This document shows positions 9,412-53,352 of a DNA stretch of 64,000 bases, one piece after another (position 1 is the first letter of the stretch; each line of letters begins with the position of its first letter). A program made the position numbers and the translations under genes. The notes under the pieces are model-generated. The model was given only the letters and a program-made list of their open reading frames with translations, searched no databases and was not told the origin of the DNA. This stretch comes from an uncultured Methanosarcinales archaeon (GTDB lineage Archaea; Nanobdellota; Nanobdellia; Woesearchaeales; GW2011-AR4): positions 13,169-77,168 of the forward strand of contig CAZYSP010000001.1 of assembly GCA_964650285.1 (NCBI GenBank). The letters are read 5' to 3'.

Positions 9412-10086
9412 ATGAAAAAGACAATTATAATGTCTTTAGGAGGATCGGTTATAGTTCCATACAATATAGATATAAAATTCCTGAAGGATTTTAAAAAAAT
9501 CATTGAAAAGTTTGTTAAGAAAGGTTTTAGGTTTGTTATATATTGCGGTGGTGGAAAAATAGCAAGAGATTATCAGAAAGCAGCTTTTAAGTTTAAGGTT
9601 AATAATAAAGATTTGGACTGGTTAGGGATACATGCAACAATATTAAATGCAAATTTTGTAAAAATATTATTTGGAAATCTTGCAGAAAACATTATAATTA
9701 AAGATCCGACAAAAAAAATTAAATTTAATAAAAAAATTATATTAGCAGGAGGATGGAAACCTGGCTGGTCAACAGATTATGATGCTGTTTTATTGGCAAA
9801 GAACCTTAAAGTTGATACAATAATAAATATGAGCGATATTGCTTATGTTTATGACAAAGATCCTAAAAAATATTTAAATACAAAGAGAATTAAAAATATT
9901 TGTTGGAGACATTATAGAAAAATTGCTGGAAACAAATGGAAAGCCGGCTTAAACAAGCCTTTTGGTCCTGTTGCTGCAAAAGAAGCTGAGGAATTAGGTT
10001 TAAAAGTTATGATTGTTGGGAAGAATTTGAGAAATTTTGAGAATTTATTAGGTAATAGGAAATTTAAAGGAACAATAATTAATTAA
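9412..10086 (+). CDS. pyrH: Uridylate (UMP) kinase, archaeal type
   Basis: Amino-acid-kinase fold. 'SLGGSVIVP', 'VIYCGGGKIARDY' and 'GGWKPGWSTDYDAVLLA' match the archaeal UMPK pattern (GGSVL.P, GGG.AR, PG.TTD..A.LLA). Confidence 0.75.
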   Translation: MKKTIIMSLGGSVIVPYNIDIKFLKDFKKIIEKFVKKGFRFVIYCGGGKIARDYQKAAFKFKVNNKDLDWLGIHATILNANFVKILFGNLAENIIIKDPTKKIKFNKKIILAGGWKPGWSTDYDAVLLAKNLKVDTIINMSDIAYVYDKDPKKYLNTKRIKNICWRHYRKIAGNKWKAGLNKPFGPVAAKEAEELGLKVMIVGKNLRNFENLLGNRKFKGTIIN

Positions 10087-10399
10087 AAACAATAAAAACT
10101 AATTAACAATAATTACAGTAAATAATAATAAAAAATAATGAAATAAAATGGAAGAAGAGTATAATTGGAAAGCTATCTTAATAGGGGCGATACCTGTTTC
10201 TATAGTTATGGCTATACTTTATTATTCTAATATTGCCAGAGGAGTTATAAACTTTATTTGATAATTGGAATTTTAATTGCAATGGGCATAACATATTATT
10301 TTGACAAGAAAAAGCACAATATTTTTACATCTGCATTTGTAGTTCTTATTGTTGCTTTGATAGTTTATGGGCTGAAAATCTATGGTCTTCTTTAGATAA

Positions 10400-10532
10400 C
10401 GGGCTGTGCCAGAGCGAACTTAAGCCAAAATACTAATTTTAATATAAGATTTTTACATACTTTTGCCCACCCCACCTCCCCGTGAATTGCGAGCGACTCG
10501 CAGTCGCTCGTCGCGTTCACTAGGCGCAGCCC
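10400..10532. mobile_element. 133-nt intergenic element 'A' (cGGGCTGTGCC ... GGCGCAGCCC): 10-nt terminal inverted complement, 7-bp flanking direct repeat TAGATAA; MITE-like or structured ncRNA
   Basis: Termini GGGCTGTGCC (10401-10410) and GGCGCAGCCC (10523-10532) are fully complementary, including one G·U pair. TAGATAA sits at 10393-10399 and 10533-10539. An internal GC hairpin is at about 10484-10510. Its 5' 30 nt and a C-rich 3' block match element B at 53212..53352. Confidence 0.55.
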
Positions 10533-11065
10533 TAGATAAAATCACTTATCTTGTGCTTTATTTCTTCATGCCAGAGCCATGCTAATAATATTATTGCATC
10601 AATTCCTGCAAAAAAATTACGACTAACATTTTGCAACAAATTTAATCCATATGTTGTATTAGAAAATGGATAAAAGAACATTATTCCGTAACCTGCAAAT
10701 AGGAAATCAAGGGATATATGAAATAAAATTCCAAAACATACAACAAAAAAATACATAGCTTCTTTATGTTTTTTATTATGCCATAGAATAAGTCCAGGAA
10801 TTAAAAAAATTAATGCAAATAAGGGTGTATGTGTAATAGTTCCATGACCTATGCTTAACCCAAAAAAGTTAAGAAACCAGTTTAATGGTAGGTCTATATC
10901 AGGCAATAAACCAGCTAAACCAGCAATAAAAATAGTATGCAAAGTAAAGTACTTCTTATGCTTTGCAAAATAATCCCTATAAAGATCAACTAAAATTATT
11001 GCTAATAAAACATGGGTTACTGCAAAGGACATGCTTAAAAAATCCTCCGTATTTTTTGGCACCAC
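10532..11065 (-). CDS. Membrane-bound metal-dependent hydrolase (YdjM/DUF457-like)
   Basis: A multi-TM protein with His/Asp motifs ('HVLLAII','HGTITHTPLF','HISLDFLF'). The first base of its TAG stop is the last base of element A. Confidence 0.45.
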   Translation of the reverse strand: MVPKNTEDFLSMSFAVTHVLLAIILVDLYRDYFAKHKKYFTLHTIFIAGLAGLLPDIDLPLNWFLNFFGLSIGHGTITHTPLFALIFLIPGLILWHNKKHKEAMYFFVVCFGILFHISLDFLFAGYGIMFFYPFSNTTYGLNLLQNVSRNFFAGIDAIILLAWLWHEEIKHKISDFI

Positions 11066-48209: not shown

Positions 48210-48312
48210 AGCCCTGCCAGGACTTTCAAGCCATACCTTGCAAGATAACGGCGTTCGAACCTGGGTCTCCGGCTCCAAAGGCCGATATCCTTGACCGCTA
48301 GACTACAGGGCT
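48210..48312 (-). tRNA. tRNA-Gln (anticodon UUG) with a putative ~31-nt non-canonical intron in the T-loop
   Basis: Minus-strand read: AGCCCTG-TA-GTCT-AGCGGTCAA-GGAT-A-TCGGC-CTTTGGA-GCCGG-AGAC-CCAGG-TTCGAA[CGCCGTTATCTTGCAAGGTATGGCTTGAAAG]T-CCTGG-CAGGGCT. Acceptor, D, anticodon and T stems all pair once the bracketed insert is removed. Confidence 0.55.
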
Positions 48313-48428
48313 GTAAGTTAATGACATCAAAGCTGATTTATAAAATTATCTATGGAGGGATTTTGATGTAGACCAAAAACAAGTGCTGAAGTAGTTAATG
48401 CTTATAGAATATTTTTAATATCTAAGCC

Positions 48429-53211: not shown

Positions 53212-53352
53212 GGGCTGTGCCAGAGCAGACTGAAGTCAAAATGCTGCATCTTGATACCATTTTGCAGATATTATTTGGTTATAATACACAGCATTTTATT
53301 TGTAGTCATTGCTTTATTTTCCCACCCGCCACCCCTAAATTAGGCATAGCCC
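53212..53352. mobile_element. 141-nt intergenic element 'B', second copy of element A (GGGCTGTGCC ... GGCATAGCCC)
   Basis: The first 15 nt are identical to A and about 25 of 30 match. A C-rich 3' block 'CCCACCCGCCACCCC' corresponds to A's 'CCCACCCCACCTCCCC'. The terminal 10-mers pair (G·U and U·A at positions 6 and 7, where A has G·C and U·G). Confidence 0.5.

Follow-up and report, generated by a model that had tools for sequence, protein, structure and literature searches.

A probable MITE family in marine Woesearchaeota, with one copy lodged between two convergent genes

Non-autonomous DNA transposons (MITEs) are known from several prokaryotes and include Correia/NEMIS of Neisseria, the pneumococcal RUP, the enterobacterial ERIC and SM1-SM4 of Sulfolobus. 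They are non-coding, measure 100-150 bp and carry terminal inverted repeats (TIRs) as well as a duplication of their target. These elements are intergenic, often lie between convergent genes and are co-transcribed as stable hairpins. Moreover, their subfamilies have common ends and differing middles, and a genome usually holds tens to hundreds of nearly identical copies of such a family. The genomes of DPANN archaea are tiny and tightly packed and are usually thought to be poor in mobile DNA. Among autonomous elements, the IS1016 group has the inverted-repeat consensus GGGgctg (PMC12561309; PMC12405337, citing Siguier et al. 2009) and is flanked by AT-rich direct repeats of 7-9 bp (PMC12561309). 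Two repeats described for it are GGGGCTGTACTAGA in ISApl4 and GGGGCTGTAGTAGAT in ISAba36 (PMC12561309, PMC12405337). The IS1016-related Merlin transposons share a terminal 5'-GG and generate 8-9-bp duplications (PMC8101967). However, they are eukaryotic and much longer, with repeats of 24-462 bp, and are relevant here only via the common transposase superfamily.

In our study we analysed a 64-kb stretch of DNA (the window) from a marine Woesearchaeota archaeon, which contains a 133-nt insert, element A, at 10400-10532. Like the MITEs named above it is non-coding, has TIRs and a target duplication, and belongs to a family with common ends and differing middles. The TIRs, GGGCTGTGCC (10401-10410) and GGCGCAGCCC (10523-10532; GGCACAGCCC in the strain variant A'), are complementary at 9/10 positions as DNA and pair at 10/10 as RNA including one U.G pair, and each base agrees with the 10-nt terminal inverted complement given in a preliminary description of this DNA. 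The heptamer TAGATAA, reported there just outside both ends, is indeed present at exactly 10393-10399 and 10533-10539. A single junction base, C10400, separates its left copy from the TIR and is counted as base 1 of the insert. Inwards from the left TIR follow a conserved 5' subterminal block AGAGCGAACTTAAGCCAAAAT (10411-10431), containing the CAAAATG of most copies, and an AT-rich middle (10432-10465), whose 5' part varies in sequence and length among subtypes while the rest belongs to the 3' ~65 nt. Next come a conserved C-rich block CCCACCCCACCTCCCC (10466-10481), in other copies CCCACCCGCCTCCCC followed by TAA or TAG, and a GC-rich 39-nt hairpin (10482-10520); all these features are given on the plus strand. 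The stem of the hairpin, CGAGCGACT/AGTCGCTCG enclosed by GTGAA/TTCAC, had also been noticed before and occurs once in the window. It is restricted to A and A'. Since the other copies have TAAAT(T) at this position, the hairpin is a secondary insertion or expansion.

At 133 nt and without a conserved ORF, A falls below the ~300 bp by which MITEs are delimited. Six-frame translation of A gave short fragments that are not conserved among the copies, with no long ORF and no transposase. The heptamer itself is not unusually frequent: on both strands of the 64 kb it was counted 18 times versus 17.8 expected. This corresponds to 0.28 per kb, far below the more than 1 per kb at which the preliminary description would have attributed the duplication to chance. 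Identical 7-mers flank a stretch of 125-145 nt at 2.5e-4 of the window positions, or at ~1e-3 if offsets of 1 nt are allowed.

Element A is located between two convergent genes. The gene on the minus strand (10532-11032) had been described as a hydrolase; its product instead belongs to the YdjM family of membrane proteins (Pfam PF04307, E = 2.7e-19), and its translation probably begins at M12 of the listed ORF, which gives these coordinates. On the plus strand, a small membrane-protein gene (10148-10395) encodes 81 aa in relatives, where it overlaps ydjM tail-to-tail, and is frameshifted in the window. The left TAGATAA includes the TAG stop of this gene (10393-10395), therefore A occupies the entire gap between the two genes. 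Read on the minus strand, the right copy is TTATCTA and holds the last ydjM codon ATC and the TA of the stop. The ydjM reading frame thus ends with ATC TAG at 10537-10532, in which the G is the complement of C10532, so that the terminal base of the element completes the stop codon as proposed earlier. Equally borne out is the claim that the C-terminus would be the same without the element: ...KISDFI* is unaltered by the insertion and invariant in 13 ydjM orthologues, irrespective of the presence of the element.

The surroundings are conserved in relatives, with UbiB, a 113-aa gene and ydjM facing the small gene and an amino-acid kinase gene. In the closest relative found (L058/L059; 88% amino-acid identity in ydjM, ~82% nucleotide identity in the flanks) the site is empty. 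Here the ends of the small gene and ydjM share 4 nt, ...GATTTTATCTAG directly followed by AAAAAAAG..., with nothing in between. Compared with this relative, the window has ~140 extra nt exactly at the overlap. When A and one repeat copy were excised in silico, the sequence became ...ATC TAA / CTT TAG..., which is the same 4-nt overlap. A precise loss of the element in L058/L059, which is a different species, is unlikely as the cause of the empty site. Element A is thus situated precisely at the former 4-nt overlap of the two stop codons, between 7-bp duplicates of the AT-rich target TTATCTA. As the duplicated heptamer spans the overlapping stop region, each gene obtained a copy for itself. With the insertion ydjM ends with ATC TAG, with TA taken from the duplication and G from the last base of A, and the small gene retains its TAG. 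The insertion was tolerated because neither protein lost its C-terminus.

Element A is not a solitary sequence. A covariance model, R1, was searched against ~0.6 Mb of Woesearchaeota loci and detected A, A', B, B', C, D, E, a truncated F, G, the copies of L066 and L067, and J, with scores of 45 to 133 bits, and nothing else; ~0.35 Mb of other Woesearchaeota loci gave no match. Counted together, several related marine Woesearchaeota carry ~10 distinct copies, which occupy 6 different loci; two of the copies are in the window. This answers the earlier suggestion to look for further copies. A 15-mer and two further conserved blocks are common to copies in at least six other genomes. The second copy suspected at 53212 is real: element B (53212-53352, plus strand, 141 nt) lies between divergent nitroreductase and DNA ligase genes. 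Common to the copies are ~33 nt at the 5' end and ~65 nt at the 3' end. While the first 33 nt are ~83% identical, the 3' ~65 nt are moderately conserved and the middle is variable. Beyond the TIR, the conserved blocks (5' AGAGCGGACTGAAGTCAAAAT, 3' CCCACCCGCCTCCCC) are asymmetric and show no mirror match. The TIRs match perfectly in A' and in copies C, D and J, and are mismatched in E. The matches L011, L013-L041 and L050 from the collection were considered as further copies and rejected as unrelated chance matches, mostly to GC-rich coding DNA. Searches of phage and plasmid collections yielded no relevant match.

The same subtypes recur at different places. The B-type middle was found at three positions, between the nitroreductase and ligase genes (B), after a radical-SAM gene (D) and at the locus of copy E, which precedes a gene whose product, a membrane protein of 590 aa, has TPR-like repeats at its C-terminus. 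Ends of the G type were found both at the B locus in L066 and, in L049, upstream of xerA. Besides the A site, two further sites are occupied in some species and empty in others, namely the B site and that of copy J, which in L069 separates two genes that overlap by 4 nt in the window as well as in L066 and L067. A clean target-site duplication is restricted to A; J is flanked by a direct repeat that matches at 8/9 positions and is offset by 5 nt, and around B, C, D, E and G no flanking duplication was found above the AT-rich chance background. Several copies are damaged. F is a 1.25-kb deletion in which the 3' part of E is removed, and this half-deleted copy is present in several contigs from different samples. 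The L067 copy has expanded to 245 nt and its C-rich block is degraded. Such decay of E, F and the L067 copy is typical of selfish DNA.

Taken together, A is probably a MITE, one of a small family of such non-autonomous transposons which, among the loci searched, is confined to a few marine Woesearchaeota. The idea of a MITE-like insertion at TTATCTA is supported by the further copies, the empty site and the exact 7-bp duplication. With this assignment A is a neat case of an element type already known and involves no new mechanism. Nevertheless, the family differs from Correia/NEMIS, RUP, ERIC and SM1-SM4 in that its copies are few and deeply diverged and its TIRs vary in a matched way among copies. 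The low copy number, two in the 64-kb window, and the deep divergence are unlike a MITE family that has recently burst. The restriction of a clean duplication to A and the asymmetry of the conserved blocks beyond the TIRs likewise speak against a MITE.

We suggest that a DDE transposase whose staggered cuts lie 7 bp apart would mobilise A in trans. Based on an end similarity of 7-14 nt and on the length of the duplication, the most likely source would be the IS1016 group of the IS1595 family, because the ends GGGCTGTGCCAGAG resemble the repeats of the group and the AT-rich 7-bp duplication fits its range. When compared at the ends only, the 5' end of A, (C)GGGCTGTGCCAGAG, is identical to GGGGCTGTACTAGA of ISApl4 at 11/14 positions; inwards of the TIR, A resembles none of the sequences with which it was compared. 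Both ends of A read GGGCTG(T/C) and so begin with the group consensus GGGgctg (PMC12561309, PMC12405337). Short inverted repeats (10-14 bp) are likewise a common feature, although the two ends of A match each other across 10 nt only, and the single 7-bp TAGATAA lies within the 7-9 bp of the AT-rich repeats of the group. Besides, a parent of this group would be compact, with ~30 nt from the end to the start codon, and the conserved CAAAATG of A is found 26-32 nt from the end. In contrast to the IS1016 group, A lacks a transposase gene and none was found nearby; moreover, its host is a DPANN archaeon, whereas the group as covered in PMC12561309 and PMC12405337 is bacterial. A transposase with matching ends was not detected in ~0.6 Mb of loci searched for the ends and, in six frames, for IS1016 catalytic motifs, and the collection matches included no full-length autonomous partner. 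The conserved 5' ~33 nt (up to CAAAATG) and 3' ~65 nt (CCC-TAA plus TIR) may represent the cis-acting ends of a parent IS, possibly including its start and stop regions, and the variable middle would then be the remnant of differing internal deletions of this parent. At its present site A is probably transcribed together with both convergent genes, and the 3' ends of their mRNAs would then carry it as a predicted, very stable hairpin that might conceivably have an effect on termination or stability.

An added role at the RNA level is conceivable because the terminal helix covaries and the C-rich block is conserved. Here A would be mobile and also work as RNA, either as a transposable element or as an exapted copy, with the 10-bp closing helix (P1) displaying a C-rich loop. 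We consider this unlikely. The loop would be the conserved single-stranded CCCACCCGCCUCCCC, represented in A by the anti-Shine-Dalgarno-like CACCUCC, and would be a binding site for a protein or for G-rich RNA. If the RNA were under selection, both the retained blocks outside the repeats and the terminal pairing would be explained. In favour of this reading, the 5' block and the C-rich block are conserved much better than the middle, and both strands fold far better than shuffled sequences (plus strand, z = -5.5 for A and -5.0 for B). In P1, both partners have changed at 6/10 pairs without loss of pairing; 94.8% of the P1 cells are paired versus ~45% with partners slid. Two neighbouring pairs, GGAUUGUGCC/GGCACAAUCC, are compensated in the L067 copy at the B locus. 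However, covariation of the TIRs is equally expected if transposon ends co-evolve with their transposase, and there is no covarying helix besides P1 and the invariant AAAAUG/CAUUUU. A putative third helix (AGAGCGG/CCGCCUC, or 5' block with linker) was discarded, as its pairing is kept neither in A nor in B. The wobble pairs are divided as well: in strain variants of A and B the differences are transitions, after which G.U wobbles remain on the plus strand, but the two mismatches of E are wobbles on the minus strand only. An assignment of the strand by wobble pairs was thus abandoned as ambiguous, A and B favouring plus and E minus. TTTAAGA-like TATA elements are located ~30 nt upstream of E and G, whereas nothing promoter-like flanks A, since coding sequence reaches to 5 nt before the element. 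Moreover, copies were lost or degraded without obvious cost, and no Rfam family matched.

In a stronger form, the family would be a mobile structured-RNA gene, a cassette spreading through Woesearchaeota since its transcript is functional besides the DNA ends. This we regard as quite improbable. The C-rich, anti-Shine-Dalgarno-like loop, presented by the 10-bp stem, could serve as decoy or sponge, either of G-rich RNA or of a protein binding the 16S rRNA 3' end, and selection on the RNA would lie behind the matched changes of the terminal helix and the asymmetric conserved blocks. That the TIRs stay complementary through changes on both sides (6/10 positions), also in the apparently orthologous L067 copy, is unexpected for a dead transposon and speaks against a MITE. 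For the ~130-nt structured RNA offered as an alternative in the preliminary description, we found no direct support, given the lack of Rfam and tRNA matches and the presence or absence of the element at conserved loci.

Strongly disfavoured, and with very little probability left, is a vertically inherited, non-mobile family of ncRNA, tRNA-like or another housekeeping RNA, for which TAGATAA would be coincidental and the absences would be losses. The elements are GC-rich islands in a genome of 34% GC and fold stably, and the 5' block GCCAGAGCGGACU resembles the D-arms of class II tRNAs and the tRNA-Leu in the window. In addition, tRNA genes of this genome can evade standard tools, as seen from a tRNA-Gln with an intron in its T-loop that these overlooked. 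Nevertheless, the elements have neither a T-arm nor an anticodon arm, and ARAGORN found no tRNA in them with or without the intron option. Rfam 15 gave no match in the whole window at gathering thresholds and only noise for A and B at E <= 10. The exact 7-bp duplication, whose removal recreates the 4-nt gene overlap, copies of a single subtype at non-syntenic loci, the absence of the family from ~0.35 Mb of other Woesearchaeota loci and the half-deleted copy in several contigs from different samples further argue against such an RNA. Finally, a fortuitous palindrome or a hairpin like that of an intrinsic terminator, flanked by a repeat merely by accident, would suit the position between convergent genes and the abundance of short repeats in AT-rich genomes, but is already refuted by the existence of the family, with its 15-mer and two conserved blocks in at least six other genomes, R1 scores of 45-133 bits and P ~1e-3 for the flanking repeat, and is left with next to no probability.

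Several other identities were considered and rejected. A tRNA, including a split or multi-intron tRNA, was suggested by the D-arm-like 5' block and dismissed for the missing T- and anticodon arms and the negative ARAGORN and Rfam searches. By-eye comparison with 5S rRNA, SRP RNA, RNase P, Y RNA, twister, K-turn and C/D sRNA revealed no fit, and Rfam was negative. The resemblance to an archaeal replication origin (ORB repeats with a G-string) is loose, an orc1/cdc6 context is absent and two copies occur in 64 kb. For an integron attC site the R''/R' cores are absent; the ends read GGGCTGT.../...ACAGCCC, the junction is GTTATCT and not GTTRRRY, and the copies are solitary, not arrayed as in integron cassettes. 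Copy G was also considered as the att site of an integrative element. The adjacent tyrosine recombinase is a highly conserved single-copy, XerA-like housekeeping protein of 217 aa (56-100% identity among the 120 matches listed), relatives have the same palindromes upstream of its gene without G, and viral contigs queried with the recombinase gave no match.

If A and its relatives are indeed MITEs, DPANN genomes are not free of mobile DNA, and this family would have been active recently enough to distinguish sister species. Insertion into overlapping stop codons can be harmless, as the target duplication has rebuilt both stops here. Should a partner transposase be found, it would point to an IS1016-like lineage in archaea, the group in PMC12561309 and PMC12405337 being bacterial. 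For RNA screens this means that GC-rich, well-folding islands of AT-rich archaeal genomes can be transposon ends, i.e. false positives. The promoter spacer between the ligase and nitroreductase genes may be a hot spot for insertion: some species have a family copy there and L069 has a different insertion, while L068 has an empty B site with a spacer of 58 nt.

Element A, the 133-nt insert at 10400-10532, is an insertion of textbook clarity at a point where two stop codons overlapped. As claimed in the preliminary description, it carries a 10-nt terminal inverted repeat (GGGCTGTGCC at 10401-10410 and GGCGCAGCCC at 10523-10532), a flanking direct repeat TAGATAA (10393-10399 and 10533-10539) and an internal GC-rich hairpin, which occurs only once in the 64-kb window. 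The terminal repeats are complementary at 9 of 10 positions as DNA and paired at all 10 as RNA, with one U.G; an extra C at 10400 separates the left TAGATAA from the terminal repeat. TAGATAA, whose frequency had been named as a point to check, is not enriched in the window (18 occurrences, 17.8 expected), and a segment this long is flanked by two identical heptamers at 2.5e-4 of window positions, or about 1e-3 with 1-nt offsets. The gene to the right on the minus strand, ydjM, encodes a YdjM-family membrane protein and indeed ends in ATC TAG, with the final G being the complement of C10532. To the left, the stop codon TAG of a small membrane-protein gene on the plus strand lies within the left TAGATAA. 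These convergent genes run up to both ends of element A, which therefore occupies the whole intergenic gap.

The gene order near ydjM is kept in relatives, with UbiB, a 113-aa gene and ydjM on one side and, facing ydjM, the small gene and a gene for an amino-acid kinase. In the nearest relative found (loci L058/L059; 88% amino-acid identity in ydjM, about 82% nucleotide identity in the flanks) ydjM and the small gene share a 4-nt tail-to-tail overlap without an insert, reading ...GATTTTATCTAG|AAAAAAAG..., and the minus strand of the window reads GATT-TTATCTA-G[GGCTGCGCC...GGCACAGCCC]G-TTATCTA-AAGAAGACC. In silico excision of element A together with one TTATCTA yields ...ATC TAA and CTT TAG on opposite strands, the same 4-nt overlap as in L058/L059. 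Site A is a classical filled/empty pair with target duplication. Since the overlapping stops lie in the duplicated heptamer, leaving one copy per gene, the insertion was harmless; the YdjM C-terminus ...KISDFI* is identical in 13 orthologues. The empty site, the duplication and the further copies described below support the MITE-like insertion (MITE, miniature inverted-repeat transposable element) that had been favoured from the outset.

Several smaller features were seen around this site. The small gene (10148-10395, plus strand; 81-82 aa in relatives L058 and L060) is split in the window by a frameshift near 10255-10262, where a T run is 1 nt shorter (TTT instead of TTTT); either the gene is a true pseudogene or the assembly is wrong here. 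The true start of ydjM is probably the Met at ORF residue 12. A strain represented by the TARA contig CEQE01115129 (L045) has A', a variant of element A, and a 245-nt internal deletion in ydjM at about 465-470 (window 10736-10980), so that the gene would be frameshifted. The 9-nt sequence TGCCAGAGC at the junction of left repeat and 5' block recurs 30 nt outside element A at 10569-10577, where it encodes WLWH within ydjM; as it is conserved in all ydjM orthologues, this is probably a coincidence.

Further members of the family were found in several searches. The second copy in the window, element B, was confirmed to start at 53212. A scan for the exact pattern, covering one genome per species, gave one true relative, copy C (L012), and no match in the window's own species. 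A looser scan of JGI metagenomes returned A', B' (a strain variant of B), D, E, a truncated copy F and, once more, C. Copy G, whose outer ends are unrelated to those of other copies, was spotted by inspection of L049. A covariance model of six copies (R1) was applied to about 0.6 Mb of Woesearchaeota loci retrieved via neighbouring proteins. It recovered all earlier copies, added copy J in L069-L072 and, at the B locus, the copies of L066 and L067, and detected no others in these loci. What the copies have in common lies at their two ends: ~33 nt at the 5' end, with a pairwise identity of about 83%, and ~65 nt at the 3' end, where CCCACCCGCCTCCCC precedes TAA or TAG and then the terminal repeat. 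Between these ends both sequence and length vary. C (L012 894-915) and E (L043 3128-3148) have different neighbouring genes and yet similar flanks, with ~20 nt shared on the 3' side (ATTTTrGATGTAGCTTA) and a little on the 5' side; either the mobile unit of this subtype is longer than its repeat-bounded part or both copies lie inside another repeat.

Other loci also point to mobility. The B site, a ligase/nitroreductase spacer with highly conserved, promoter-like flanks, is empty in L068 (58 nt) and occupied by family members in the window, L066 and L067; it looks like an insertion hot spot. At exactly this site L069-L072 carry an unrelated ~290-nt insertion (L069 5645-6000) built from some nine short, GC-rich hairpins whose loops measure 4-6 nt; this could be a further mobile or structured element. 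In L069, copy J separates a methylase gene from a 126-aa gene; the window, L066 and L067 have these two genes in a 4-nt overlap. Copies B, D and E share the same middle next to different genes in different species, and G-type ends were seen at two loci, one in each of two species. Copy G separates a pair of conserved palindromes from the start of a XerA-like recombinase gene; in relatives both palindromes and gene are present and G is absent. These palindromes (GCAACAyTT, 8-9 nt, AAGTGTTGC) stand directly 5' of the 217-aa XerA-like gene in every Woesearchaeota locus examined (L049 5200-5290; L051, L052 and L055 just upstream of position 10001) and might serve as an operator or a dif-like site. 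The recombinase was rejected as a mobile-element integrase: with 56-100% identity among the 120 matches listed and apparently a single copy, it is a housekeeping gene. Signs of decay were also seen. The terminal repeat of E is mismatched, and half of this copy was lost in several contigs through a 1.25-kb deletion at an ATGTT microhomology (L043 1936-3183 versus L049 7340-7342, also L044 and L046; three contigs from different samples), which removes its 3' part and also the N-terminal ~380 codons of the gene for a membrane protein of 590 aa whose C-terminal part carries TPR-like repeats. In L067 the copy has grown to 245 nt and its C-rich block is degraded, and in the L066 copy the 27-nt 5' block is tandemly duplicated.

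The ends suggest a transposon source. ISApl4 (IS1016 group, IS1595 family; 712 bp) has the inverted repeat GGGGCTGTACTAGA and 8-bp AT-rich direct repeats, the range in its group being 7-9 bp (PMC12561309); the inverted repeat of ISAba36 is GGGGCTGTAGTAGAT, and the group's end consensus is GGGgctg (PMC12405337, citing Siguier et al. 2009). The 5' end of element A, (C)GGGCTGTGCCAGAG, matches the ISApl4 repeat at 11 of 14 positions, the reverse complement of its 3' end reads GGGCTGCGCCTAG, and its AT-rich 7-bp duplication falls within the group range. From placement alone we infer that the conserved CAAAATG (26-32 nt from the left end) and CCC-TAA/TAG (15-20 nt from the right end) may be where the transposase gene of a compact IS1016-type element would start and stop. 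As no transposase with matching ends was found in the roughly 0.6 Mb of loci searched, membership in the IS1016 group is a well-motivated hypothesis. The window (34% GC) encodes FtsZ and ribosomal proteins of archaeal type together with an ATP-dependent DNA ligase, the near relatives of its proteins are labelled Woesearchaeota or Nanoarchaeota in their source records, and identical contigs come from TARA and other marine metagenomes. Overall, the data support a new MITE family in marine Woesearchaeota, probably IS1016-related; MITEs are a known kind of element, of which this family is a new member.

It is unlikely, though worth keeping in view, that the element is mobile and also functional as an RNA. 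Terminal complementarity is kept despite two-sided changes at 6 of 10 positions across copies, with matched end changes in L067 (GGAUUGUGCC/GGCACAAUCC), in J (AGGCUUUGCC/GGCAAAGCCU) and in G-type ends; such changes are also expected from ends co-evolving with a transposase. The L067 copy is harder to account for: because its middle is homologous to that of the L066 copy at the same locus, it would require either an independent hot-spot insertion or in-place selection on pairing. Outside the terminal repeat the conserved blocks lack symmetry, and the C-rich block is striking for a genome of 34% GC. Wobble pairs are divided on the transcribed strand, favouring the plus strand in A and B and the minus strand in E. 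On these grounds the mixed reading is kept, and with it, as a very improbable one, a purely non-mobile RNA gene. Rfam gave no match in the whole window at gathering thresholds and only noise on elements A and B at E <= 10. A tRNA-like identity, suggested by the resemblance of the 5' block to a class II D-arm and by the intron-bearing tRNA described below, was rejected since T-arm and anticodon arm are both absent, and ARAGORN called no tRNA in the elements with the intron option on or off.

A separate observation concerns a tRNA-Gln(UUG) gene at 48212-48316 on the minus strand, which was missed by both ARAGORN and Rfam. It contains a 31-nt non-canonical T-loop intron, CGCCGTTATCTTGCAAGGTATGGCTTGAAAG, and after removal of the intron by hand ARAGORN calls a clean 74-nt tRNA. 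Standard tools detect one tRNA only in the 64 kb, and other tRNAs may therefore be hidden likewise.
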